The translations under genes were made by a program, and so were the position numbers. Below are positions 1 to 8,332 of a stretch of DNA of 64,000 bases, one piece after another (the first letter of the stretch is position 1; every line of letters starts with the position of its first letter). Below the pieces are notes generated by a model. The model was not told the DNA's origin. It ran no database searches and worked only from the letters and a program-made list of their open reading frames with translations. The stretch lies in IMG/VR virus record IMGVR_UViG_3300042891_002054; one strand, written 5' to 3'. Source of the stretch: a virus. Lineage: Duplodnaviria > Heunggongvirae > Uroviricota > Caudoviricetes.

Positions 1-1650
1 GTTGCTGAAGTAAAAGAATTTTTTGCTAATGGGTTAGTATCTCACAATTCAACATTTATTGATGCTATAACTTTTGCTCTCTATGGAAAACCTTTTAGAA
101 AAATAAATAAAGGTCAGCTGATCAATTCTATTAATAAATCTGAACTTGTTACCGAGATAGAATTTTCTATTGGACCAAACAAATATAAAATTATTAGAGG
201 AATTAAACCTAATATTTTTGAAGTTTATTGTAATAATGTTCTTGTAAAACAAGATGCAAAAGTAAAAGATTATCAAGAGCAATTAGAAAGATATATATTA
301 AAAATGAACTATAAATCGTTTACTCAAGTTGTGATTTTAGGTTCTGCTAGATACACCCCTTTTATGCAATTATCTGCCAGTGATAGACGTTCTGTTATTG
401 AAGATTTGTTAGATATTCAAATTTTTTCTAATATGAATTCTATCGTAAAAGATAAACTATCTGGAATAAAAGATTCAGTTCAAGATTGTAAATATAAAAT
501 TGAGCTGTTTAAAGATAAAATTGAACTACAGAAACAAAATATAAAACAAAATAAAAAAGCTTCTGATGAGTTGGTTTTGCGTAAAAGGGAAATTATTTCC
601 AATACAGCTATTGAAGTTGAGGATTTACAACAATCCATACAAAAACTATTAGAAGAAAATGAATCTTTATCGGAACAAATCACTGATTTAAGTTCATTAG
701 AAAAAAAACAAAAAAAGTTAGCGGATATTGGTGTTAAGTTAAAAAGTAATATTTCTAAAATCGAAAAAGAAAATGAATTTTATCATGATAATGATAATTG
801 CCCGACTTGTAAACAAACAATAAACCATATTTTTAAAACTCAAATTGTTTCTAGTAACACAGAAAAAATGAAAGAATTAAAATGTGGTGAACAAAAATTA
901 ATTGAAGACTATAGAACTGTGCAAAAAAGATTAACTGAAATTAAAGAAGTTAATGAGAAAATATTGAATAATAATTCTATTATTCTGGATAAAAATTCAA
1001 ATATTAAATCTGCTCAAAAATATATAAAATTAGTTTCTGCTGAAATTGATACCATAAAAGATTCGACTGATGCTAAAGAAACTGGACATGATACCCTCCA
1101 AGAATTAATTGAAAGCTTAGATGTTTACGTTGAACAATATGAAGAATATATAAATGAAAAGAGTTATTACGATTTTATTTCTATAATGTTAAAAGATGGT
1201 GGTATTAAAACTCGTATCATTAAACAATATCTTCCGATCTTAAATAAGTACATAAATCAATATTTAACTCAATTAGATTTTTTTGTTAATTTTAATATTA
1301 ATGAAAATTTTGAAGAGGTAATTAAATCAAGACATCGGGATGAATTTACTTATGCCAATTTTTCTGAAGGTGAAAAAACTAGATTAGATTTAGCTATTTT
1401 ATTTTCATTTAGGCAATTAGCTAGATTAAAAAATTCAGTAAATACAAATTTGTTAATTCTTGATGAGATTATGGATGGATCTCTTGATACAGGTGGTACT
1501 GATGTTTTTATGAATCTTTTATCAACAGTAGATAAACACACTAATATTTTTGTTATTAGCCATAAATCTGATCAAGTATCAGATAAATTTGATTCAATAT
1601 TAAAATTTGAAAAAGTTAAAAATTTCTCTAAAATGAAGGTAATACAATGA
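1..1650 (+). CDS. 46: Recombination endonuclease ATPase subunit gp46 (SbcC/Rad50-like), 5'-partial
   Basis: Frame 1 is open from nt 1 into the listed ORF 304..1650 with no stop, so the gene starts upstream of the window. The upstream translation '...STFIDAITFALYGKPFRK...' matches the gp46/SbcC N-terminal ABC region. The middle is a long coiled coil and the C-terminus carries 'NLLILDEIMDGSLD' (Walker B/D-loop). Synteny with gene 45 downstream supports the call. Confidence 0.85.
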   Translation, partial: VAEVKEFFANGLVSHNSTFIDAITFALYGKPFRKINKGQLINSINKSELVTEIEFSIGPNKYKIIRGIKPNIFEVYCNNVLVKQDAKVKDYQEQLERYILKMNYKSFTQVVILGSARYTPFMQLSASDRRSVIEDLLDIQIFSNMNSIVKDKLSGIKDSVQDCKYKIELFKDKIELQKQNIKQNKKASDELVLRKREIISNTAIEVEDLQQSIQKLLEENESLSEQITDLSSLEKKQKKLADIGVKLKSNISKIEKENEFYHDNDNCPTCKQTINHIFKTQIVSSNTEKMKELKCGEQKLIEDYRTVQKRLTEIKEVNEKILNNNSIILDKNSNIKSAQKYIKLVSAEIDTIKDSTDAKETGHDTLQELIESLDVYVEQYEEYINEKSYYDFISIMLKDGGIKTRIIKQYLPILNKYINQYLTQLDFFVNFNINENFEEVIKSRHRDEFTYANFSEGEKTRLDLAILFSFRQLARLKNSVNTNLLILDEIMDGSLDTGGTDVFMNLLSTVDKHTNIFVISHKSDQVSDKFDSILKFEKVKNFSKMKVIQ

Positions 1651-2249
1651 ATAATAAATTTATATATGATACAACCAGTTCTCTATCAACTGTAGGTGCT
1701 TCACCACCTGAACCTCAATTTAAACCTTATTCTTTAGTTGATCAAAATTCTTCAATTTTATCGGCCAAATTAAAAGATTTTGATTTCGGTGACCCGACTT
1801 TAGATTCTATTGATATTGCATCAAGATTAGTTGAGACTGCAAAATATCATAGAGTTTATGGTATTGCTGCGAATCAATGTGGGTTACAATATAGAGTTTT
1901 TGTTGCTGGTTCTGATGATAATTTTGTGGCATTTTATAATCCTGTTATAATCAGTTCTGATGGTGAGGTACTAATGCAAGAAAGCGATCTTAGTAATATG
2001 GGATTATTACTTCATGTAAAACGACCAAAATCAATTGTATTGCAATATCAAGATTATAATGGAGAAACTAAATTACTTCAATTTGAAGGATTAACTGCCA
2101 GAATTATCCAACAAAATATTGATAGATTAAATGGTATTGATTTTAAGAGTAAAGTCTCGCAATTAAATTTAGAAAGAGCTAGAAAAGCGTTGAATAAAAA
2201 AATTAAAAAATTTGTTAGAACTAATACAATGATTAGGGAAACTGAATAA
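1647..2249 (+). CDS. Peptide deformylase-fold protein with degenerate active site
   Basis: Aligns along its length to bacterial PDF. Motif I 'GIAANQCG' is intact. Motif II EGCLS is replaced by 'ESDLS' and motif III QHExDH by 'QQNIDR', so the Cys, both His and the catalytic Glu are all substituted. Confidence 0.6.
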   Translation: MNNKFIYDTTSSLSTVGASPPEPQFKPYSLVDQNSSILSAKLKDFDFGDPTLDSIDIASRLVETAKYHRVYGIAANQCGLQYRVFVAGSDDNFVAFYNPVIISSDGEVLMQESDLSNMGLLLHVKRPKSIVLQYQDYNGETKLLQFEGLTARIIQQNIDRLNGIDFKSKVSQLNLERARKALNKKIKKFVRTNTMIRETE

Positions 2250-3208
2250 TGACAATATTTGTTACTGGTGGTAATGGGTTTATTGGTTCTAATTTCATAA
2301 CTGAATGGTGTGAACTTATGGATGAAGATATTGTTAATATAGATAGTTTAACTTATTCAAGTTCAGATTATATTGACACCATTAAGTCTACTCAGTTAAA
2401 AAATCATGTTGTTAATATTAATGATTATGATTCTATTTTATATCTGTTAGCTGCATATAAACCAAGAGCAATAATTCATTTTGCTGCTGAATCGCATGTA
2501 GATAATTCTATTAAAGATCCTCAAATATTTTTTAAAACAAATATTCTCGGTACAGCAAATTTATTAGAATGTGTAAAAAAATTTGATAAATCTATTAAAT
2601 TTGTTCATGTATCAACTGATGAGGTTTTTGGTTCTTTAGGTGAATATGATAACCCTTCAACTGAAGAATCACCATATAGACCAAATAGTCCATATTCTGC
2701 TAGTAAAGCTGCTAGTGATCATATTGTTAGAGCATATCATAAAACATACGGTTTACAAACTATTACAACAAATTGTTCCAATAATTATGGTAAATTTCAA
2801 CACCAAGAAAAATTTATTCCCACTGTAATTAGATCGTGTTTACAGGGAAAAAATATACCTATATATGGTAACGGTAGACAAATTAGGGATTGGTTATTTG
2901 TTTCCGATCATTGTTCAGCATTAAGATTAATTTTAGAACATGGTGTTGTCGGAGAAACTTATAATATTGGCGGTGATAATCAAATTACAAATTTAGAAGT
3001 TGTAAATATGATTTGTAGTTACCTAGATAAAGTTGCTCCTAAAAATAAATTTTATTCTAAATTAATTTCATTTGTTGCTGATAGACCTGGTCATGATATT
3101 AGATATGATATTAATTCAGGTAAACTACAAAAATTAGGTTGGAAACAAACTGTTAAATTTGAAGATGGATTAAAACAAACAATAGATTGGTATTTACAAA
3201 ATGAATAG
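2249..3208 (+). CDS. rmlB: dTDP-glucose 4,6-dehydratase (RmlB-like SDR)
   Basis: N-terminal 'IFVTGGNGFIGSNF' Rossmann fold, 'STDEVFG' and catalytic 'YSASKAASDHIV' (YxxxK). Operonic with rmlA and rmlC. Confidence 0.85.
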   Translation: MTIFVTGGNGFIGSNFITEWCELMDEDIVNIDSLTYSSSDYIDTIKSTQLKNHVVNINDYDSILYLLAAYKPRAIIHFAAESHVDNSIKDPQIFFKTNILGTANLLECVKKFDKSIKFVHVSTDEVFGSLGEYDNPSTEESPYRPNSPYSASKAASDHIVRAYHKTYGLQTITTNCSNNYGKFQHQEKFIPTVIRSCLQGKNIPIYGNGRQIRDWLFVSDHCSALRLILEHGVVGETYNIGGDNQITNLEVVNMICSYLDKVAPKNKFYSKLISFVADRPGHDIRYDINSGKLQKLGWKQTVKFEDGLKQTIDWYLQNE

Positions 3209-3986
3209 AAAAGGTATCGTATTAGCTGGTGGAGCTGGCACAAGGTTAAAACCTTTAACTGATATAGTGTGTAAACAATTATTGCCTATATATGATAAAC
3301 CAATGATTTATTATCCAATAAGTGTATTAATGCTTGCTGGTATAAAAGAAATTGCGATTATCTCTACTCCAAAAGACCTTCCTGTTATGGAAAATTTATT
3401 AGGTGATGGTAGTCAATTTGGAGTTTCGTTTACATATTTGGTTCAAGAAAAACCTACTGGTATTGCTGAGGCATTTATTATCGCTAAAGAATTTATTGAT
3501 AATTCTCCTGTTGCTTTAATTCTAGGTGATAATATCTTTTTTGGGCATGGTTTACCTGAATTGTTGCGAAAAATTAATATAAGCGTGGAAAATACTATTT
3601 TTGCGTATCATGTTAATGATCCCGAAAGATTTGGTGTTGTTGAAATAAAAAAAGGTAAAGCAGTTTCTATCGAAGAAAAACCTAAAAAACCTAAAACGAA
3701 TTATGCTATTCCTGGATTATATTTTTATTCAAATAATGTTGTTCGTGATGTTAAAACTTTATCTCCGTCCAGTAGAGGTGAATTAGAAATAACAGATTTA
3801 AATAAATTATATTTAAATAAACAAGATTTGAATGTTGAAATATTGGGAAGAGGAGTTGCTTGGTTAGATACTGGAACTTTCGATTCATTATTAGAAGCTA
3901 GTCAGTTTATATCAACAATACAAAATAGACAAGGTTTAAAAATTTCAAATTTAACTGAAATTGCTGCACATTATAATTGGATCTAA
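3201..3986 (+). CDS. rmlA: Glucose-1-phosphate thymidylyltransferase
   Basis: 'KGIVLAGGAGTRLKPLT' N-terminal signature, 'PMIYYPI' and 'ILGDNIF' motifs of RmlA. Start overlaps the rmlB stop. Confidence 0.9.
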   Translation: MNRKGIVLAGGAGTRLKPLTDIVCKQLLPIYDKPMIYYPISVLMLAGIKEIAIISTPKDLPVMENLLGDGSQFGVSFTYLVQEKPTGIAEAFIIAKEFIDNSPVALILGDNIFFGHGLPELLRKINISVENTIFAYHVNDPERFGVVEIKKGKAVSIEEKPKKPKTNYAIPGLYFYSNNVVRDVKTLSPSSRGELEITDLNKLYLNKQDLNVEILGRGVAWLDTGTFDSLLEASQFISTIQNRQGLKISNLTEIAAHYNWI

Positions 3987-3987
3987 T

Positions 3988-4530
3988 ATGAATTTTACTA
4001 AATTATCTCTTGATGGATTATTATTATTAATAGAACCAACAATATATAATGATGATCGTGGATTATTTTTCGAGAGTTTTAATCAAACTGTTTTTGAACA
4101 AGCTGTAGGTTATCCTGTAAATTTTGTTCAAGATAACCACTCAAAATCTATAAAAAATGTGTTTAGGGGATTACACTATCAATTACCTCCTAAAGCGCAA
4201 GGAAAATTAGTTAGAGTAATTTCTGGGGAAGTTATTGATTTTGCTGTTGATATTAGAAAAACTTCTGAGACATTCGGTCAATATATTTCCGTTGTGTTAT
4301 CAGCAGAAAATGCTCGACAATTATGGATACCGCAGGGTTTTGCTCACGGATTTTTAACAATTTCTGATTATGCTGAATTTGTGTATAAGGTAACGGATTA
4401 TTATGACCCTGTGTGCGATAGATCTATAACATATATGGATCCGGATATAAATTTATGTATTCATGATAATGTAATTGTATCTCAAAAAGATTTAGTAGGA
4501 AAATTGTTAAAACATGCAGAATATTTTTAA
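3988..4530 (+). CDS. rmlC: dTDP-4-dehydrorhamnose 3,5-epimerase (RmlC cupin)
   Basis: 'RGLHYQLPPKAQGKLVRV' RmlC signature and cupin fold. The listed ORF begins at 3961 but the ATG at 3988 directly follows the rmlA stop, so the later start is preferred. Confidence 0.8.
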   Translation: MNFTKLSLDGLLLLIEPTIYNDDRGLFFESFNQTVFEQAVGYPVNFVQDNHSKSIKNVFRGLHYQLPPKAQGKLVRVISGEVIDFAVDIRKTSETFGQYISVVLSAENARQLWIPQGFAHGFLTISDYAEFVYKVTDYYDPVCDRSITYMDPDINLCIHDNVIVSQKDLVGKLLKHAEYF

Positions 4531-4567: not shown

Positions 4568-5362
4568 ATGGAAATTAATTTAGAAAAAGACAGATTTATT
4601 GGTAAAAAACTTTTTATTGGTACTCCAATGTATGGCGGGAGCTGTTTGGGTACATATATGAAATCTTGTTTAGACCTTCAATCTGCATGTATGCAATATG
4701 GTATTGAAGTTAGATTTTCATTTTTATTTAATGAAAGTCTAATCCAACGAGCTAGAAATTATATTGTAGATGAATTTTTGCGTTCCGATTGTTCACATTT
4801 AATGTTTATTGATGCTGATATTGGTTTTAATCCAATGGATATTATTGCTATGTTAGCTTTAGATAAAGATATTATAGGAGCTCCATACCCTAAGAAAACT
4901 ATTAAATGGGAAAATATAAAGAAAGCGATAGTTAAAAATCCGGAAATATCTGCTGGTGAACTAGAAAGATTGGGTGGTGACATTGTTTTTAACCCAGTTG
5001 CAGGAACAACCCATTTTAATGTAACAGAACCTCTTCAAGTTCTTGAAATTGGTACTGGTATGATGATGACAAATAGATCAGTATTTGCTAAATTCAAAGA
5101 AGCCTACCCGCAATATGAGTATACACCTGATCACGTTGGTACTGCGCATTTTGGTGGCGATAGAAAAATTCATTCATATTTCAACGTTGAAATTGATGAA
5201 GCATCTAATCGCGTTCTTAGCGAAGATTACCATTTTTGTCAACAGTGTAGAAAAATTGGAGTTGAAGTTTGGATGGCTCCGTGGATCAATTGTGTACACG
5301 TTGGGACCTATCATTTCCAAGGAAATCTTCCTGCTGTAGCAAATTATCTTGGTGAATTGTAA
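4568..5362 (+). CDS. Putative GT-A fold glycosyltransferase (DxD 'FIDADIGF')
   Basis: Nucleotide-sugar transferase-like N-terminal half with a DxD motif. Sits immediately downstream of rmlBAC. Confidence 0.45.
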   Translation: MEINLEKDRFIGKKLFIGTPMYGGSCLGTYMKSCLDLQSACMQYGIEVRFSFLFNESLIQRARNYIVDEFLRSDCSHLMFIDADIGFNPMDIIAMLALDKDIIGAPYPKKTIKWENIKKAIVKNPEISAGELERLGGDIVFNPVAGTTHFNVTEPLQVLEIGTGMMMTNRSVFAKFKEAYPQYEYTPDHVGTAHFGGDRKIHSYFNVEIDEASNRVLSEDYHFCQQCRKIGVEVWMAPWINCVHVGTYHFQGNLPAVANYLGEL

Positions 5363-5370
5363 AAAAGTGC

Positions 5371-5399
5371 TTGACTAAACAGAGATCTTAGTATAGAAT
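5371..5399 (+). promoter_or_regulatory. Sigma70-like early promoter (TTGACT-N17-TAGAAT) with conserved upstream 'aaaaagtgc'
   Basis: TTGACT at 5371-5376, 17-nt spacer, TAGAAT at 5394-5399. The same 'aaaagtgcTTGAC' upstream element recurs at 5451 and 50631. Confidence 0.55.
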
Positions 5400-5459
5400 A
5401 CGTCTATACTTTGATCTTTTTTAAAAAATAGTAAAAATTTACTAAATAGAAAAAAGTGC

Positions 5460-5488
5460 TTGACTAAATAGTAATTCTATAGTACAAT
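5460..5488 (+). promoter_or_regulatory. Sigma70-like early promoter (TTGACT-N17-TACAAT) upstream of tRNA array
   Basis: TTGACT 5460-5465, 17-nt spacer ending in 'ctatag', TACAAT 5483-5488. About 20 nt upstream of tRNA-Tyr. Confidence 0.6.
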
Positions 5489-5508
5489 AGATATATAGTT
5501 TGAATTAA

Positions 5509-5594
5509 GGGTAAGCGGTGAAGTTGGAGAGTCACACGGGACTGTAAATCCCGCGCCACTGGCTGAGTAGGTTCAAATCCTACCTTACCCACCA
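5509..5594 (+). tRNA. tRNA-Tyr (anticodon GTA), type II, CCA encoded
   Basis: Manual cloverleaf. Acceptor gggtaag/cttaccc, D-stem gtga/tcac, anticodon stem cggga/tcccg with loop ctGTAaa, long variable arm, T-loop ttcaaat, discriminator A plus CCA. Confidence 0.8.
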
Positions 5595-5609
5595 AATTTT
5601 ATTAGTAAT

Positions 5610-5686
5610 GCGGGTGTGGCCCAATAGGCAGAGGCAATAGACTTAAAATCTATCAAGTGACAGTTCGAGTCTGTCCACCCGTACCA
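5610..5686 (+). tRNA. tRNA-Leu (anticodon TAA), CCA encoded
   Basis: Acceptor gcgggtg/cacccgt (G1-U72), anticodon stem ataga/tctat with loop ctTAAaa, extended variable arm, A73 plus CCA. Confidence 0.7.
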
Positions 5687-5700
5687 AATTAGAGAATATT

Positions 5701-6129
5701 ATGAGTTTATTGAGTATAATTAGAACTGATTTAGATGCGGCTAGACGTAATAAAGATGCTAGGTTGTTGACTTTATTGACAACTCTTTATTCTGAAGCAG
5801 CTATGGTGGGTAAAACTAAACGTAATGGTGAATCCACCAACGAAGAAGTTCTTGCTGTAACCAGAAAATTTAAAGTTGGTGTTGAAGAAATTATTAAAAT
5901 TAAAGGTTCTAACGAATTTTTAGATTTCGAAATTTCACTTTATAATAAATACTTGCCTGAACTGTTAACTGATATCCAATTAACAGAAATTATTACTGCT
6001 TTAATTTCTGAATTACCTGAAAAATCCCCTAAATCAATGGGAGTAATTATGGGTAAATTAAAATCGGAATATTTAGGTAGATATGATGGTACAATTGCTA
6101 GTAAATTAGTTAAAGACTTATTAGCATAA
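5701..6129 (+). CDS. GatB/YqeY-domain protein
   Basis: Full-length match to the YqeY/GatB C-terminal domain: 'KYLPELLTD' and 'MGVIMGKLKSEYLGRYDGTIASKLVKDLL' fit the family consensus (eYLPkqls ... mGkvMg.lk..v.GradgklvsklVkekL). The gene is embedded between tRNA genes. Confidence 0.8.
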   Translation: MSLLSIIRTDLDAARRNKDARLLTLLTTLYSEAAMVGKTKRNGESTNEEVLAVTRKFKVGVEEIIKIKGSNEFLDFEISLYNKYLPELLTDIQLTEIITALISELPEKSPKSMGVIMGKLKSEYLGRYDGTIASKLVKDLLA

Positions 6130-6136
6130 AGATTTT

Positions 6137-6212
6137 GCCGTTATAGCACAATTGGTAGTGCACCTGATTTGTAATCAGGGGGTTGGGGGTTCGAGTCCCT
6201 CTGGCGGCACCA
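6137..6212 (+). tRNA. tRNA-Thr (anticodon TGT), CCA encoded
   Basis: Acceptor gccgtta/tggcggc (two G-U pairs), anticodon stem cctga/tcagg with loop ttTGTaa, T-arm ggggg/ttcgagt/ccctc, A73 plus CCA. Confidence 0.7.
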
Positions 6213-6220
6213 AAATTATT

Positions 6221-6299
6221 CGGAATTTAACTCAGTTTGGCCAGAGTGCACCGTTTGGGGCGGTGAAGTCGCAGGTTCGAATCCTGCAATTCCGACCAA
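6221..6299 (+). tRNA. tRNA-Pro (anticodon TGG), CCA encoded
   Basis: Acceptor cggaatt/aattccg, anticodon stem caccg/cggtg with loop ttTGGgg, T-loop ttcgaat, A73 plus CCA. Confidence 0.8.
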
Positions 6300-6391
6300 T
6301 TTAATAGTACAATATAAACAGTGAAAGTTGTACACCACCTGTTAGGTTTCTACCAAAGTGTAGATATATACAAGAGTTCTGATTAATTATT

Positions 6392-6465
6392 GCGGGATAG
6401 TTCAGTAGTAGAATGCTAGGCTCATAACCTAGAGGTCGTTGGTGCAATTCCAACTCTCCGCTTCC
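6392..6465 (+). tRNA. tRNA with CAT anticodon (Met or lysidine-Ile), non-canonical acceptor/D pairing
   Basis: Anticodon stem ctagg/cctag with loop ctCATaa and T-arm gttgg/tgcaatt/ccaac are clear. The acceptor gcgggat vs tctccgc has two mismatches at its base, so the boundaries are approximate and it may be a degenerate copy. Confidence 0.5.
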
Positions 6466-6483
6466 AATTTTAGGTATTTTATT

Positions 6484-6669
6484 ATGAATAGAACTTTAAT
6501 TGATGAAATTCGATTTGTTGATACTGAAATAAAAGAATTAGATGCTAAAATTAACTTTTTAAAAATGTATGATAAAGGTTCATTTAAGCAAATGATCTCT
6601 GATAGAGAATTTTCTAAAAGTGTTCGTTTGAAAAAACGAAATATTTTGGTTAAATTGGTGATATTATGA
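6484..6669 (+). CDS. Hypothetical small protein
   Basis: The listed ORF 6439..6669 overlaps the tRNA 3' end. The internal ATG at 6484 ('MNRTLIDEIRF...') avoids that overlap. Confidence 0.3.
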   Translation: MNRTLIDEIRFVDTEIKELDAKINFLKMYDKGSFKQMISDREFSKSVRLKKRNILVKLVIL

Positions 6670-7295
6670 TTATTGGTTTATTGGGTTTTATCGGTTCTGG
6701 TAAAGGAACTGTAGGTGAAATTTTAGCACATACAGAACATAAATTTGTTCCATTATCTTTTGCTGGTAGTTTAAAAGATAGCGTTTCTGCTATTTTCGGT
6801 TGGGAAAGAGCTTTACTTGAAGGTGATACCCTAGAATCTAGGGAATTTCGTGAAACACTTGATCCGTTTTGGTCAAAGAAATTTAATAGAGATATTACAC
6901 CAAGATATATTTTACAAATTTTTGGAACTGAAGTTTGTAGAAATAACCTTATAGATACTATATGGGTTGATAGTTTAGAACGTAAAATTCTACAATACGA
7001 AAATGTTGTTATTACTGATGTTAGATTTAATAATGAAATAAGATTTCTTAAATCTCTAAACTCATTATTGGTTCAGGTTGATAGAACAGAAACTCAACCT
7101 GATTGGTGGAAATGGCATGAAAGTTGTATGAAAACAATTCCTGCACAGTGGGAAAAATATGCTCTAGAACATAAGATACATAAATCTGAGTATGAGTGGA
7201 TAGGTAATCCTCATATTGATCATGTTGTTGAGAATAATGGATCATTTCGTGATCTTGAATTGAAAATTTTAGATATTGTAGTAAATAATGCTTGA
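6666..7295 (+). CDS. Deoxynucleoside monophosphate kinase-like P-loop kinase (T4 gp1-like)
   Basis: N-terminal P-loop 'GLLGFIGSGKGT' and the 'ITDVRFNNE' motif characteristic of phage dNMP kinase family. Confidence 0.55.
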   Translation: MIIGLLGFIGSGKGTVGEILAHTEHKFVPLSFAGSLKDSVSAIFGWERALLEGDTLESREFRETLDPFWSKKFNRDITPRYILQIFGTEVCRNNLIDTIWVDSLERKILQYENVVITDVRFNNEIRFLKSLNSLLVQVDRTETQPDWWKWHESCMKTIPAQWEKYALEHKIHKSEYEWIGNPHIDHVVENNGSFRDLELKILDIVVNNA

Positions 7296-7320
7296 CTTAC
7301 AACAGAGTCTATAGTATAAT
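7292..7320 (+). promoter_or_regulatory. Sigma70-like early promoter (TTGACT-N17-TATAAT)
   Basis: TTGACT 7292-7297, 17-nt spacer ending 'ctatag', TATAAT 7315-7320. Lies 12 nt upstream of the second tRNA block. Confidence 0.65.
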
Positions 7321-7331
7321 AAATGAATAAA

Positions 7332-7409
7332 TCCCAGTTAGCAATCATGGTGAATGCGCTCGACTGTTAATCGAGAATGAGGTTGGATCGTTACCAACAC
7401 TGGGAGCCA
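7332..7409 (+). tRNA. tRNA-Asn (anticodon GTT), CCA encoded
   Basis: Acceptor tcccagt/actggga, anticodon stem ctcga/tcgag with loop ctGTTaa, T-stem gttgg/ccaac with an atypical T-loop 'atcgtta'. Confidence 0.55.
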
Positions 7410-7414
7410 ATTTT

Positions 7415-7489
7415 ATTCCCTTGGAGAAGTGGTTATCTCATCTCCCTTTCACGGAGACGTCACGGGTTCGAATCCCGTAGGGAATACCA
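7415..7489 (+). tRNA. tRNA-Glu (anticodon TTC), CCA encoded
   Basis: Acceptor attccct/agggaat, anticodon stem tctcc/ggaga with loop ctTTCac, T-arm acggg/ttcgaat/cccgt, A73 plus CCA. Confidence 0.65.
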
Positions 7490-7604
7490 AAATGCATAGT
7501 ATCGCTTTATGCTATGGTGGGTAAGTGCCTCTCGACTCTGATAAGATGCCTCTCAGACCACAACTAGAGTTGTTATTGCAATGACAACATAAGCAAAAAT
7601 TATT
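7490..7604 (+). ncRNA. Structured non-tRNA spacer RNA inside the tRNA array (two hairpins)
   Basis: About 115 nt between tRNA-Glu and the next tRNA that cannot be folded as a cloverleaf. It contains the hairpins gcatag...ctatgc and gttgt(t)...gacaac. Positionally it resembles the small stable RNAs (rnaC/rnaD) co-transcribed with T4 tRNAs. Confidence 0.3.
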
Positions 7605-7681
7605 GCCCATGTATCCCAATCGGTAGAGGAGTTGGTCTTAGAAACCAATTGTTGTAAGTTCGAATCTTACCATGGGTACCA
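7605..7681 (+). tRNA. Type I (short variable arm) tRNA with anticodon TAG (would decode CUA)
   Basis: Acceptor gcccatg/catgggt (G1-U72), D-stem tccc/agga, anticodon stem ttggt/accaa with loop ctTAGaa, 5-nt variable region, T-arm gtaag/ttcgaat/cttac, A73 plus CCA. Confidence 0.55.
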
Positions 7682-7691
7682 AATTGATGTA

Positions 7692-7766
7692 GCCCTTATC
7701 GTTTAATGGATAGGACATGGGATTTCTACTCCCAGAATGGAGGTTCGATTCCTTCTAAGGGTGCCA
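7692..7766 (+). tRNA. tRNA-Arg (anticodon TCT), CCA encoded
   Basis: Acceptor gccctta/taagggt, anticodon stem tggga/tccca with loop ttTCTac, T-loop ttcgatt, G73 plus CCA. Confidence 0.7.
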
Positions 7767-7782
7767 AATAGACCTATTTGGT

Positions 7783-7858
7783 GTGGTCGTGACGGAATGG
7801 TAGACGTCCCTGATTGTGATTCAGGATTTTGTGGGTTCAAGTCCCACCGATCACCCCA
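7783..7858 (+). tRNA. tRNA-His (anticodon GTG), discriminator C, CCA encoded
   Basis: Acceptor gtggtcg/cgatcac (one G-U), anticodon stem cctga/tcagg with loop ttGTGat, T-arm gtggg/ttcaagt/cccac, C73 plus CCA. The nucleotide at -1 is T rather than the usual G-1. Confidence 0.6.
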
Positions 7859-7878
7859 AATAGGTCTATAAAGAATTA

Positions 7879-7970
7879 GGAAGTGTGGCAGAGCATGGCT
7901 TATTGCACTGGTCTTGAAAACCAGCGACTCAGAGATGGGTCCGTGAGTTCGAATCTCACCGCTTCCGCCA
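7879..7970 (+). tRNA. tRNA-Ser (anticodon TGA), type II, CCA encoded
   Basis: Acceptor ggaagtg/cgcttcc, anticodon stem ctggt/accag with loop ctTGAaa, long variable arm, T-arm gtgag/ttcgaat/ctcac, G73 plus CCA. Confidence 0.8.
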
Positions 7971-7977
7971 AATTAAT

Positions 7978-8051
7978 TGGGTTATAGTGTAATGGTAACA
8001 CAACAGATTTTGATTCTGTCGTTCGTGGTTCGAGCCCACGTAACCCTGCCA
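7978..8051 (+). tRNA. tRNA-Gln (anticodon TTG), G73, CCA encoded
   Basis: Anticodon stem acaga/tctgt with loop ttTTGat, T-arm cgtgg/ttcgagc/ccacg. The acceptor register is ambiguous (either a U1:U72 mismatch or a shifted stem), so the ends are +/-2 nt. Confidence 0.55.
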
Positions 8052-8059
8052 GACATTTT

Positions 8060-8147
8060 GGAGAGTTGCCAGAACGGTTAATGGAGCGGTTTGCTAAACC
8101 GTCATCGAGAAATCGATGTATTGGTTCGAGTCCAATACTCTCCGCCA
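8060..8147 (+). tRNA. tRNA-Ser (anticodon GCT), type II, CCA encoded
   Basis: Acceptor ggagagt/actctcc, anticodon stem gcggt/accgt with loop ttGCTaa, long variable arm, T-arm ttgg/ttcgagt/ccaa, G73 plus CCA. Confidence 0.75.
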
Positions 8148-8175
8148 AGATTTAAATATATTTCTAATTGTTATT

Positions 8176-8250
8176 GCGAGTATGGTGTTAATGGTAGCAT
8201 TACAGTCTTCCAAACTGAAGGTAGGGGTTCGAATCCCCTTACTCGCTCCA
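8176..8250 (+). tRNA. tRNA-Gly (anticodon TCC), CCA encoded
   Basis: Acceptor gcgagta/tactcgc, anticodon stem (a)cagt/actg(a) with loop ctTCCaa, T-arm aggggttcgaatcccct, U73 plus CCA. Confidence 0.7.
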
Positions 8251-8256
8251 AATGCA

Positions 8257-8332
8257 GGGTCTTTAGTTAAAAGGTTTAGAACGTCCGACTCATAATCGGT
8301 TGATCTGGGTTCGAGTCCCAGGAGACCCACCA
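8257..8332 (+). tRNA. tRNA with CAT anticodon (likely lysidine-Ile or Met; second CAT tRNA in array)
   Basis: Acceptor gggtctt/gagaccc, anticodon stem (t)ccga/tcgg(t) with loop ctCATaa, T-arm ctggg/ttcgagt/cccag, A73 plus CCA. Confidence 0.65.

Follow-up and report, generated by a model that had tools for sequence, protein, structure and literature searches.

Why would a phage keep a gene for a peptide deformylase (PDF) in which every metal ligand and the catalytic glutamate have been replaced? Among the auxiliary genes of aquatic viromes, phage PDFs rank with the most abundant, and their assumed role is to boost deformylation. The gene considered here lies directly 3' of gp46 in a 64,000-nucleotide stretch of DNA from an uncultured T4-like phage, the whole of which we refer to as the window. 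Its features are collected in Table 1.

Table 1. Features of the PDF-like gene and its upstream neighbour, in window coordinates
Feature	Position	Strand	Basis or remark
gp46, SbcC-like recombination nuclease subunit (upstream gene)	1..1650	+	PHROG 77, synteny; runs off window start
Translation-initiation region	1635..1650	+	Sequence
PDF-like ORF, 200 aa + stop	1647..2249	+	ORF list, PF01327, PHROG 2890, PDB matches, AF2/Foldseek
N-terminal extension, ~30 aa, F-I-Y-(N/D)-T motif	1647..1736	+	Without counterpart in E. coli Def
Motif I remnant V-Y-G-I-A-A-N-Q, residues 70-77	1854..1877	+	Alignments, entropy
Motif II E-S-D-L-S-N, residues 112-117, for E-G-C-L-S-F	1980..1997	+	Alignments, entropy
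Motif III Q-Q-N-I-D-R, residues 155-160, for Q-H-E-x-D-H	2109..2126	+	Alignments, entropy
Long basic C-terminal α-helix (predicted), residues 172-199	2160..2243	+	AF2, Foldseek; equivalent to E. coli Def α3

The gene and its catalytic motifs

The ORF begins with ATG, and its start overlaps the stop of gp46 in the sequence ATGA (1647-1650), an arrangement that is kept in 7 of 7 genomes checked. A Shine-Dalgarno-like site, GAAGGT, is found at 1635-1640, 7 nt 5' of the start, and sites of the aAGGT type are retained at most of the loci examined that carry the substituted gene, being weaker in L086/L087 and shifted in L012. The upstream gene is identified as gp46 by its match to the PHROG 77 profile (E=1e-105), and intein junction analysis assigns positions 1-51 to the end of a C-intein and positions 52-1650 to the C-extein. 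The gene order gp47-gp46-PDF-...-GT264-gp45-gp44 is kept both in the substituted clade and in relatives with canonical motifs. A functional tie to gp46 was considered on account of the translational coupling and was dropped in favor of conserved gene order within the T4 replication/recombination module, as canonical PDFs occupy the same place and two other genes intervene in Mosig. On the 3' side of the PDF-like gene, the window contains the sugar-nucleotide genes rmlB/A/C and a glycosyltransferase-like gene; this rml cassette is variable or missing in relatives that retain the PDF-like gene.

The encoded protein is a member of the PDF superfamily, with homology far above chance. It matches Pfam PF01327 with 86.3 bits (gathering cut-off 22.8; E=2e-24) over residues 31-173, corresponding to profile positions 5-153 of 156, and it matches PHROG 2890, "peptide deformylase", with E=7e-26 as well as 78 PDF sequences from the PDB, the best being 1lme (6e-14). 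An earlier note on this DNA had described an alignment with bacterial PDF from end to end, which holds for the PDF domain but not for the N-terminal extension of about 30 residues that is absent from E. coli Def. The extension is common to the substituted and the canonical phage clades and is modeled with low confidence (pLDDT 53, 50, and 80 for successive 10-residue blocks).

When the protein is aligned to solved PDFs by HMMER, its ESDLS falls opposite EGCLS and its QQNIDR opposite QHExDH, and alignment to E. coli Def by MAFFT yields an identical register, in which C90 corresponds to D114, H132 to Q156, E133 to N157, and H136 to R160. The replacement of all metal ligands and of the catalytic Glu, as the note had claimed, is thereby borne out, and no realignment was found that restores His or Cys at these positions. 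In E. coli Def, mutagenesis has established that C90, H132, H136, and E133 are each needed. An active PDF (EC 3.5.1.88) carries EGCLS, with its Cys ligand, as motif II and HExxH, with two His and the catalytic Glu, as motif III; the window protein has neither, the motif II Gly being replaced by Ser at a position that is variable and motif III reading Q-N-I-D-R. Motif I, which the note had described as kept, is preserved in G-I-A-A-N-Q, including the invariant oxyanion-hole Gln (Q77, equivalent to E. coli Gln50), but not in the first Gly of the classical motif (E. coli G43), which is Val in the window protein and variable in the clade. The sequence Y-G-I-A-A-N-Q fits the updated definition of motif I, hydrophobic-G-hydrophobic-A-A-x-Q (PMC12690207). 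Across the clade there is no other conserved set of His or Cys residues to act as substitute ligands, only H68 (86%) and C78 (89%) being conserved. Both were rejected as compensating ligands, with C78 about equally frequent in canonical sequences (85%) and H68 present there at 42%. Judged from its sequence, the window protein is very unlikely to be a deformylase.

Descent and selection

The substituted pattern is present in approximately 64 protein clusters, down to 48% identity. Clusters P0001-P0063 (48-100% identity) combine E-x-D-[LIVA]-[STN]-N with Q-Q-x-[IVF]-D-R, and two variants of motif III occur, Q-H-H-I-D-R in P0062 and H-Q-A-I-D-R in P0038. The positions of Asp (D114) and Arg (R160) are invariant in the clade, and the position of the catalytic Glu is occupied by N, G, A, C, S, Q, or H. 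Apart from one cluster of 225 aa and one fragment of 126 aa, the proteins are 193-206 aa long; 72 distinct clade proteins align over their full length, and there are no stops or frameshifts among 16 distinct coding sequences. The identical protein is found on at least 14 contigs from NCBI, JGI, ENA, and Logan. The core clade is monophyletic in a neighbor-joining (NJ) tree (72/72), with a bootstrap value of 78% when the motif columns are masked.

At dS values of 0.1-1.0, the substituted gene has a dN/dS of 0.09-0.32. For the same genome pairs, gp46 gives 0.13-0.22, and the canonical clade has a median of 0.085-0.28. This comparison across homologs, named as a check in the earlier note, thus indicates purifying selection, of a strength equal to that on the neighboring gp46, an essential gene. 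Constraint is nevertheless somewhat relaxed, because the gene evolves at about 1.4-1.7 times the rate of gp46 versus 0.9-1.2 times for its canonical orthologs. The properties that define a pseudoenzyme, namely homology, absence of the catalytic residues, and purifying selection, are thus found together, and the gene is almost certainly kept by selection for a function. The motif regions are the most conserved segments, with an entropy of 0.60-0.99 bits versus 1.37 elsewhere in the protein. Constraint has been released at exactly three positions, those of the catalytic Glu and of two motif glycines: the equivalents of E. coli G43, G89, and E133 stand at 2.1-2.4 bits versus 0 in the canonical clade (2.22 bits versus 0 at position 70, the G43 equivalent, and 2.44 bits at N157), with Q77 and R160 at 0 bits. 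Near the old active site, the clade has gained the conserved residues N117, M118, G119, D165, and K167.

In more distant T4-like phages the slot is filled by a PDF with canonical EGCLS/HExxH, at 38-47% identity, and the PDFs of the cultured relatives Stenotrophomonas phage DLP_6 and Pelagibacter phage Mosig are also canonical, lying one gene and three genes, respectively, 3' of the gp46-like gene. The earlier note had held that canonical HExxH in relatives would overturn its reading; the motif does occur, but solely in these distant positional orthologs, which polarize the change from active to dead rather than refute it. The gene descends from an active phage PDF, placed just 3' of gp46 in the phage ancestral to this T4-like lineage, and it is an ortholog with a single probable loss of catalysis in this lineage. 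With the motif columns masked, its nearest neighbors are canonical phage PDFs and its best PDB matches are type 1B, in a comparison that included no type 3 references. A second active PDF was not found in the 64-kb window or in the 10 kb upstream of it; tblastn against the window with the dead, canonical, and E. coli queries returned only the gene itself below E=0.1. The related loci gave one PDF match each. A megablast search of INPHARED gave no match to the window except tRNAs, and there is no close relative among 185,579 species-representative genomes. Among cultured phages, no DNA polymerase exceeds 47.6% identity to that of the window, and the nearest belong to cyanomyoviruses.

A second ligand-less clade, the P0121 lineage, occupies the same slot and has a dN/dS of 0.02-0.11 (approximately 0.055), as judged on its own loci (L092-L106). 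As this clade is independent, loss of catalysis with retention of the gene appears to be repeatable. The second clade is taken to be the P0121 lineage alone, a three-member grouping of P0121, P0213, and P0207 being unsupported at the representative level with the motifs masked. A stepwise path of decay was also considered, with the partial-loss proteins P0200 (C-Q-Q-L), P0166 (C-H-S-L), and P0098 (N-Q-A-S) basal in the first NJ tree, and was dropped because this grouping received 0% bootstrap with the motif columns masked. Under the same masking, an extended clade of 15 representatives received 36%. Several scattered ligand-less cases are also seen within the same phage PDF family.

Predicted fold, C-terminal helix, and relation to known PDFs

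The AF2 model of the protein has a pLDDT of 88.4 and a C-terminal helix at residues 172-199. The top 50 PDB matches in Foldseek are all PDFs (E ~1e-14, target TM up to 0.92), and matches to E. coli Def have a target TM of 0.85-0.88 over 162-168 columns of chains of 161-168 residues. The fold is confidently predicted to be that of a complete, intact type-1B PDF. Structure prediction and alignment with E. coli Def, a further check named in the earlier note, therefore give a predicted PDF fold with substituted catalytic residues. This prediction, together with fixation in a monophyletic clade and purifying selection, supports the note's suggestion of a conserved but inactive PDF fold put to a new use.

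E. coli Def docks on the ribosome by its basic C-terminal helix α3. The tail following G163 in the window protein (residues 164-200, 37 aa) has a net charge of +7, with a clade median of +9, and the E. coli Def tail is 29 aa with a net charge of +6. The entropy of the C-terminal helix is 1.18 bits in the substituted clade versus 1.74 in the canonical one. Three residues, R177, K184, and K187, are 98-100% conserved, at 0-0.13 bits where the canonical clade has 1.0-2.4. They line up with E. coli R153, which contacts uL22, and K160 and R163, which contact 23S (PMC12690207). Of the six positions by which E. coli Def contacts the ribosome, three are thus conserved, as R/K/K, with K150 aligning to V/N and K157 to A/S, although helix registers in such alignments can slip.

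Relative to E. coli Def, a bacterial type 1B PDF (EC 3.5.1.88; 1icj, 1lru, 4az4), the window protein is predicted to share the fold over the whole Def length, including α3, and it shares the motif I Gln, the motif II Glu/Leu/Ser, the motif III Asp/Gly, and the basic C-terminal helix. It differs in having Asp, Gln, Arg, and a variable Asn for Cys90, His132, His136, and Glu133, in being phage-encoded, and in its N-terminal extension of about 30 aa. The canonical T4-like phage PDFs (IMG/VR L018-L080; DLP_6 AAY80_031; Mosig_00023) are positional orthologs 3' of gp46 that also have the basic C-terminal helix and, in the metagenomic sister clade, the N-terminal extension with F-x-Y-N-T. However, they keep EGCLS and HExxH, conservation of their C-terminal helix is lower, and their evolution, measured against that of gp46, is slower. 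The characterized viral PDFs (cyanophage S-SSM7, 3uwa; Vibrio phage Vp16, 5mtc; marine "type 4") likewise have a phage-encoded PDF fold that is detectable from sequence, but their catalytic motifs are perfectly conserved, they are active, and they have no ribosome-interacting C-terminal region (PMC5591237). On each of these three points the window protein is the reverse, with substituted motifs, predicted inactivity, and a long C-terminal helix, and it lacks both the perfect motifs and the truncated C-terminus of the type 4/Vp16-like PDFs.

Motif-substituted homologs are also known among the type 3 and accessory PDFs (the second PDFs of S. aureus and of S. pneumoniae, along with archaeal and trypanosomatid proteins), which are weakly active or inactive (PMC12690207, PMC5591237). 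These are cellular paralogs altered mainly in motifs I and II, some of them active, whereas the window protein is from a phage, has a type-1B-like origin, and has all ligands of motifs II and III changed to a fixed Asp/Gln/Arg. B. subtilis DefA offers another parallel, as its C-terminal α-helix mediates a non-catalytic regulatory interaction that inhibits the tyrosine kinase PtkA (PMC11194573); the difference is that DefA retains deformylase activity and has a BY-kinase as its partner. In the literature searched, no paper was found that pairs "peptide deformylase" with "pseudoenzyme", and a search for phages with an inactive PDF turned up nothing beyond cellular proteins of type 3. In the passages searched, PDF motifs are not a topic of the pelagimyophage paper.

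Candidate functions and what they would mean

The product of this gene very probably has a new, non-enzymatic job. The best explanation overall, which we put forward tentatively, is a folded, metal-free pseudo-deformylase that is non-catalytic and most plausibly docks at the ribosomal exit site. Asp114 and Arg160 probably pair as a salt bridge that fills and stabilizes the former metal site, because both stand at metal-holding positions (Cys90/His136). Docking on the ribosome is favored by the retention and tightening of the basic C-terminal helix and, judging by the conservation of that helix, is a serious though uncertain prospect. Def and methionine aminopeptidase (MetAP) share a site, which would then be occupied without chemistry, and this occupancy may change how N-termini are processed, or how other exit-site factors gain access, during phage gene expression. 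Competitive blocking of host Def or MetAP is rather unlikely; such a blocker would hit phage proteins as much as host ones, which leaves the selective benefit unclear. Release of the G43/G89 equivalents suggests that the canonical substrate-binding geometry is not kept, and this speaks against a protein that simply binds formyl-Met and cannot cut it.

It is possible, if on the improbable side, that the dead PDF core and the C-terminal helix regulate some other host or phage protein away from the ribosome. The rmlB/A/C and glycosyltransferase-like genes adjoin the 3' side of the gene in the window, and BY-kinases control polysaccharide synthesis. B. subtilis DefA is a precedent for a C-terminal helix that moonlights independently of the ribosome (PMC11194573), and the clade-specific N117, M118, G119, D165, and K167 are conserved at the surface. 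However, there is no identifiable partner, the rml cassette comes and goes among relatives that have the gene, and the newly invariant helix residues fall on ribosome-contact positions of E. coli Def. A reader or holdase that binds nascent formyl-Met N-termini without cutting, and so protects or marks certain phage proteins, is less probable still. Its attraction lies in the conserved Q77 (E. coli Q50), E112 (E88), and L115 (L91), the hydrophobic pocket residues L149 and I153, and motif regions that are still the most conserved segments, but the glycines of the substrate/formyl site (G43, G89) have given way to variable, bulkier residues (2.1-2.2 bits), the Arg side chain probably occupies the position of metal and formyl group, and fold stability explains the conservation of the site equally well.

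We consider it quite unlikely that the protein is still an enzyme, whether a deformylase or another hydrolase with an unconventional Asp/Gln/Arg site. Some motif-substituted type 3 PDFs, as in T. brucei, have been reported to be active (cited in PMC12690207), Asp can ligate metals, and the old active-site region is strongly conserved; yet three ligands and the general base were lost together, Arg is not able to act as a metal ligand, N, G, A, C, S, Q, and H occur without constraint in place of the general base, and no alternative conserved His/Cys set has taken over. The decaying gene that the earlier note had offered as its alternative, or a pseudogene or assembly artefact, is the least credible reading by far. 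An enzyme gene in early decay could look like this, with all catalytic residues lost, and the present gene is faster relative to gp46 than its canonical orthologs. Decay is rejected by the selection analysis, with a dN/dS like that of gp46, invariant replacement residues, and a second ligand-less clade at about 0.055, and also by the intact coding sequences, the full-length proteins, and the conservation of translational coupling and, at most loci, of the SD-like site. Independent recovery of the identical protein from four data sources argues against an artefact.

To our knowledge, every characterized phage PDF is active and is without the ribosome-binding helix. The design seen here is the opposite, in that the chemistry is predicted to be gone and the helix is kept and tightened. 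Selection has fixed it in one broad lineage, and at least one other lineage has undergone the same change independently. Some proteins annotated as "peptide deformylase" in viromes are thus very probably not enzymes, and in infection the PDF scaffold very probably offers a function without catalysis on which selection can act. The fixed Asp...Arg in place of the metal center may be a clean natural case of a metalloenzyme fold stabilized without metal. If the pseudo-deformylase does dock on the ribosome, proteins of this kind would be natural competitors for the Def/MetAP site, of use in studies of co-translational processing or in mimicking PDF-inhibitor antibiotics. A bolder and more doubtful proposal is that T4-like phages have repeatedly turned a ribosome-docking PDF into a non-catalytic exit-site factor, a protein-based Def/MetAP antagonist by which the infecting phage reprograms how N-termini are processed co-translationally, or which factors gain access, on host ribosomes. 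Were that so, phage translation-takeover proteins would gain a new class, which would also serve as a natural probe of the competition among exit-site factors.

The PDF-like gene and its replaced motifs

The peptide deformylase (PDF)-like reading frame opens with an ATG that shares the tetranucleotide ATGA with the TGA of the gene upstream, and a Shine-Dalgarno-like GAAGGT lies 7 nt 5' of this start. The upstream gene is gp46, the SbcC-like recombination nuclease subunit (PHROG 77, E=1e-105), so the earlier note was right to place the homolog next to gene 46. Residues 31-173 match Pfam PF01327 with 86.3 bits (gathering cut-off 22.8; E=2e-24), PHROG 2890, 'peptide deformylase', matches with E=7e-26, and a PDB search returns 78 distinct PDF sequences, the top one being Thermotoga PDF 1lme (E=6e-14). 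Judged by its sequence and predicted fold, the window protein is a member of the PDF superfamily.

HMMER alignments to solved PDFs set ESDLS against EGCLS and QQNIDR against QHExDH, and the same register is obtained from independent MAFFT alignments that include E. coli Def, a type 1B PDF. Both bear out the claim that every metal ligand and the catalytic Glu are substituted: in conventional E. coli numbering, C90 becomes D114, H132 becomes Q156, E133 becomes N157, and H136 becomes R160. Motif I, described earlier as kept, does retain G-I-A-A-N-Q with the Gln50 equivalent, although its first glycine (G43) is now Val; likewise, the reported end-to-end alignment holds for the PDF domain but not for an N-terminal extension of ~30 residues that Def lacks. 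The protein is without intact motifs II and III, the two defining features of an active deformylase, and annotation as EC 3.5.1.88 is unwarranted because of this. With these residues in place, its sequence makes a canonical PDF metal centre or general base impossible.

The N-terminal extension carries a conserved F-I-Y-(N/D)-T (Y7 98% and T9 94% in the substituted clade, the window-type homologs with replaced catalytic residues). It is common to the canonical sister clade, in which EGCLS and HExxH are kept, missing from bacterial Def and predicted to be disordered; possibly it serves as a short linear motif for interactions.

Genomic setting

All substituted-clade loci share the order UvsY, UvsW, orf218, gp47, gp46, PDF-like gene, variable cassette, the glycosyltransferase-like GT264, (YqeY, tRNAs, dNMP kinase), gp45, and gp44. 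The same slot is occupied by a canonical EGC[LI]S and HExxH PDF, also with an N-terminal F-x-Y-N-T extension, in 63 further IMG/VR loci (L018-L080) from more distant T4-like genomes (gp46 45-54% and gp44 64-74% identical to the window's). The only cultured relatives, Stenotrophomonas phage DLP_6 and Pelagibacter phage Mosig, are both canonical, with the PDF one gene and three genes, respectively, downstream of a gp46-like gene. By sequence and gene order, the window gene has as its positional ortholog a phage PDF that is apparently active. In a neighbor-joining tree (128 sequences, with E. coli Def as root), 72/72 substituted sequences fall in one clade whose sister group is all canonical, and the clade keeps 78% bootstrap support with all three motif regions masked. 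Orthology and tree together place the loss of catalysis at a single event, in the ancestor of the window's lineage.

The phage itself is uncultured: megablast of the window against INPHARED gave no match apart from tRNAs, no cultured phage has a DNA polymerase more than 47.6% identical to its own, and its GC content is 28-34%. No close relatives of the PDF-like protein were found in 185,579 species-representative genomes.

Coordinates of the features discussed (L081 is the 108-kb contig matching the window)
Feature	Location	Strand	Remarks
PDF-like ORF	window 1647-2249	+	200 codons; from ORF list
N-terminal extension, residues 1-30	window 1647-1736	+	
Split gp46	window 1-1650 (+); L081 6731-6931 and 8031-10004		
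C-intein end of gp46	window 1-51		
347-aa ORF between gp46 halves	L081 6985-8028		no Pfam match
dTDP-sugar cassette	window 2249-4530	+	rmlB 2249-3208, rmlA 3201-3986, rmlC 3961-4530
GT264	window 4568-5362	+	264 aa; weak Anp1 (mannosyltransferase-like) match
tRNA array	window 5509-8332	+	15 genes
YqeY/GatB-domain gene	window 5701-6129		within tRNA array
dNMP-kinase-like gene	window 6666-7295		within tRNA array
Tet/JBP-family dioxygenase gene	L081 142-1524	-	460 aa
P0121-lineage PDF-like gene	~5001-5495 in most of L092-L106		IMG/VR loci

Several neighbors deserve mention in their own right. The gp46 of the window's lineage is in two pieces, with an atypically split intein inside the Walker A motif. 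A 66-aa ORF consists of a 40-aa N-extein (ending GQGK) and a 26-aa N-intein with Cys first, and the second ORF opens with a ~124-aa C-intein (Pfam Intein_splicing, E=5.5e-13) ending ...VSHN, directly followed by the C-extein STFIDA.... In relatives L085, L087, L088, and L089, gp46 is 573 aa long and uninterrupted. The 347-aa ORF separates the halves in L081, L082, and L005, while in L083 they are only ~180 nt apart; this ORF may be a free-standing homing endonuclease or other mobile insert. Directly 3' of the PDF-like gene lies the dTDP-sugar cassette, a hypervariable slot, since its content changes between close relatives: all three rml genes in L081 and L088, rmlA and rmlC in L087, rmlC only in L085, and none in L083, where a 689-aa TerD-domain gene is found farther 3', flanked by the GT-like gene and YqeY. 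GT264 always sits between the PDF slot and gp45; nearly every related T4-like locus long enough to span the slot, whether canonical or substituted, has kept it, with 50-93% identity. The tRNA array, its interleaved genes and the PDF-like gene form a translation-related neighborhood. The Tet/JBP-family gene, which precedes the PDF-like gene by ~8.5 kb on L081, is a hint that this phage may hypermodify its DNA bases.

Conservation, selection and recurrence

Searching 5.8 billion protein clusters yielded 70 relatives. Among these, clusters P0001 to P0063 (48-100% identity) share the patterns E-x-D-[LIVA]-[STN]-N and Q-Q-x-[IVF]-D-R, except that motif III reads Q-H-H-I-D-R in P0062 and H-Q-A-I-D-R in P0038. 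Throughout these clusters the Asp replacing Cys and the Arg replacing the second His are invariant and the Gln replacing the first His is ~97% conserved; the former catalytic Glu position holds N, G, A, C, S, Q or H. The six most distant of the 70 relatives (38-47% identity) retain EGCLS and HELDH. A protein identical to the window's is encoded on 14 or more contigs, in assemblies from NCBI, JGI, ENA, and Logan.

The earlier note had allowed that this could be a decaying gene, a possibility that the conserved replacements already argue against. No internal stops were found in 16 distinct substituted-clade coding sequences drawn from IMG/VR loci and metagenome contigs, and their Nei-Gojobori dN/dS of 0.09-0.32 (pairs with dS 0.1-1.0) is near the 0.13-0.22 of the last 400 codons of gp46, an essential gene, in the same genome pairs. 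The canonical sister clade has medians of 0.085-0.28 by dS bin. Relative to gp46, substituted proteins diverge ~1.4-1.7x as fast and canonical ones 0.9-1.2x as fast. Constraint is thus somewhat relaxed, as expected because catalytic constraints were lost, yet clearly present, and decay is rejected.

An exhaustive phmmer search of 1.84 billion representatives gave 8,024 PDF homologs at E<=1e-3, and among the best ~150 of these, ~20 lack the catalytic Glu or one or more metal ligands. The P0121 lineage, a further ligand-less clade of independent origin whose 90% cluster counts 42 members from dozens of contigs, has E-T-D-I-T-R, L-H-H-I-D-N, and a motif I Gln to Glu change (Q50 to E). It is present in 15 IMG/VR loci (L092-L106) of a more distant T4-like lineage, with gp44 only 49-52% identical to the window's, in the slot gp47-gp46-PDF-GT264-gp45-gp44. 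Its nearest relatives, in L107 and L108, are canonical, and dN/dS of 0.02-0.11 (median 0.055) indicates strong purifying selection. Scattered cases are the phage-type representatives P0082, P0100, P0183, P0198, P0207, P0211, P0213, P0098, P0166, P0200, and P0178, each missing one to four catalytic residues in differing combinations (e.g., S-Q-N-H, C-Q-G-S, S-H-E-H, D-Q-Q-Y) and each with a canonical nearest neighbor; several turn up on more than one contig, a Tara Oceans scaffold among them. The first seven keep canonical nearest neighbors with motifs masked and never joined the window's clade in 200 bootstraps. Since deep branches of the PDF tree are otherwise poorly resolved, the claim is limited to two or more independent losses maintained by selection, with additional scattered cases, and does not extend to a stepwise pathway.

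Predicted structure and possible roles

AlphaFold2, run with a 48-sequence family alignment, gave a model (pLDDT 88.4, pTM 0.78) with ~20 disordered N-terminal residues and a long C-terminal helix at 172-199. The top Foldseek matches of this model in the PDB are all PDFs, and those to E. coli Def span 162-168 columns of chains of 161-168 residues (target TM 0.85-0.88), so that alpha3, the C-terminal helix of Def, is included. Column entropies on 90%-non-redundant sets show that conservation in the substituted clade is still highest in the motif regions (0.60-0.99 bits vs 1.37 for the rest of the domain), with D114, R160, Q77, E112, and R152 invariant and N117, G119, and D165 conserved specifically in this clade. 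Three positions are released (2.1-2.4 bits vs 0 in canonical sequences), the equivalents of G43, G89, and E133, coinciding exactly with the catalytic base and two glycines of motifs I and II. The C-terminal helix is tightened, at 1.18 bits vs 1.74 in canonical relatives, most clearly at R177, K184, and K187 (0-0.13 vs 1.0-2.4). The Def helix contacts uL22 via L149, K150, R153, and K157 and 23S rRNA via K160 and R163 (PMC12690207), which align with L173 (F/L), N174 (V/N), R177, A181 (A/S), K184, and K187. Four of these six positions are conserved in type, three of them nearly invariant. Median values for the C-terminal tail are 37 aa in length and +9 in net charge, compared with 29 aa and +6 for E. 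coli Def.

D114 and R160 probably form a salt bridge, because both occupy ligand positions of the same metal ion, with Q156 hydrogen-bonding, and the fold would be stabilized without metal; such a bridge would explain invariant Asp and Arg replacements while the Glu position drifts. Because constraint has shifted to the helix and matches ribosome-contact positions, the protein may have kept the ability to dock at the ribosomal exit site, although two Def contact positions are not conserved in the clade. Speculatively, a protein that took up the Def/MetAP site but did no chemistry there could alter how N-termini are processed, or which factors gain access, during infection, but such a blocker would not tell phage and host nascent chains apart. 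The mechanism as a whole is still inferential. The same helix could instead bind a non-ribosomal protein partner, for which B. subtilis DefA, whose C-terminal helix mediates inhibition of the kinase PtkA, is a precedent (PMC11194573). A rival role as an fMet reader or holdase has the released glycines against it, as they count against faithful fMet-peptide binding. Residual or novel catalysis is a further rival; no other conserved His/Cys set able to rebuild a metal site was found in the substituted-clade alignment.

Characterized viral PDFs (cyanophage S-SSM7, Vibrio phage Vp16, marine type 4) are active, with perfectly conserved motifs and no ribosome-interacting C-terminus (PMC5591237). The window protein is the reverse, with motifs substituted and a C-terminal helix present. 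The inactive or weak 'type 3' PDFs are cellular paralogs from S. aureus, S. pneumoniae, archaea, and trypanosomatids; they are described as changed chiefly in motifs I and II, with activity remaining in some (PMC12690207, PMC5591237). We found no published report of a phage-encoded ligand-less PDF, or of PDF pseudoenzymes as such, and source databases label the substituted-clade proteins plain 'peptide deformylase'. The main interpretation of the earlier note, a repurposed inactive fold, holds: the window protein is a real, conserved pseudo-deformylase, maintained by selection with its predicted fold intact. The default functional annotation is thereby overturned for a widespread phage gene family in which the dead form evolved recurrently, and the pseudo-deformylase provides a connection to ribosome exit-site biology that can be tested directly.
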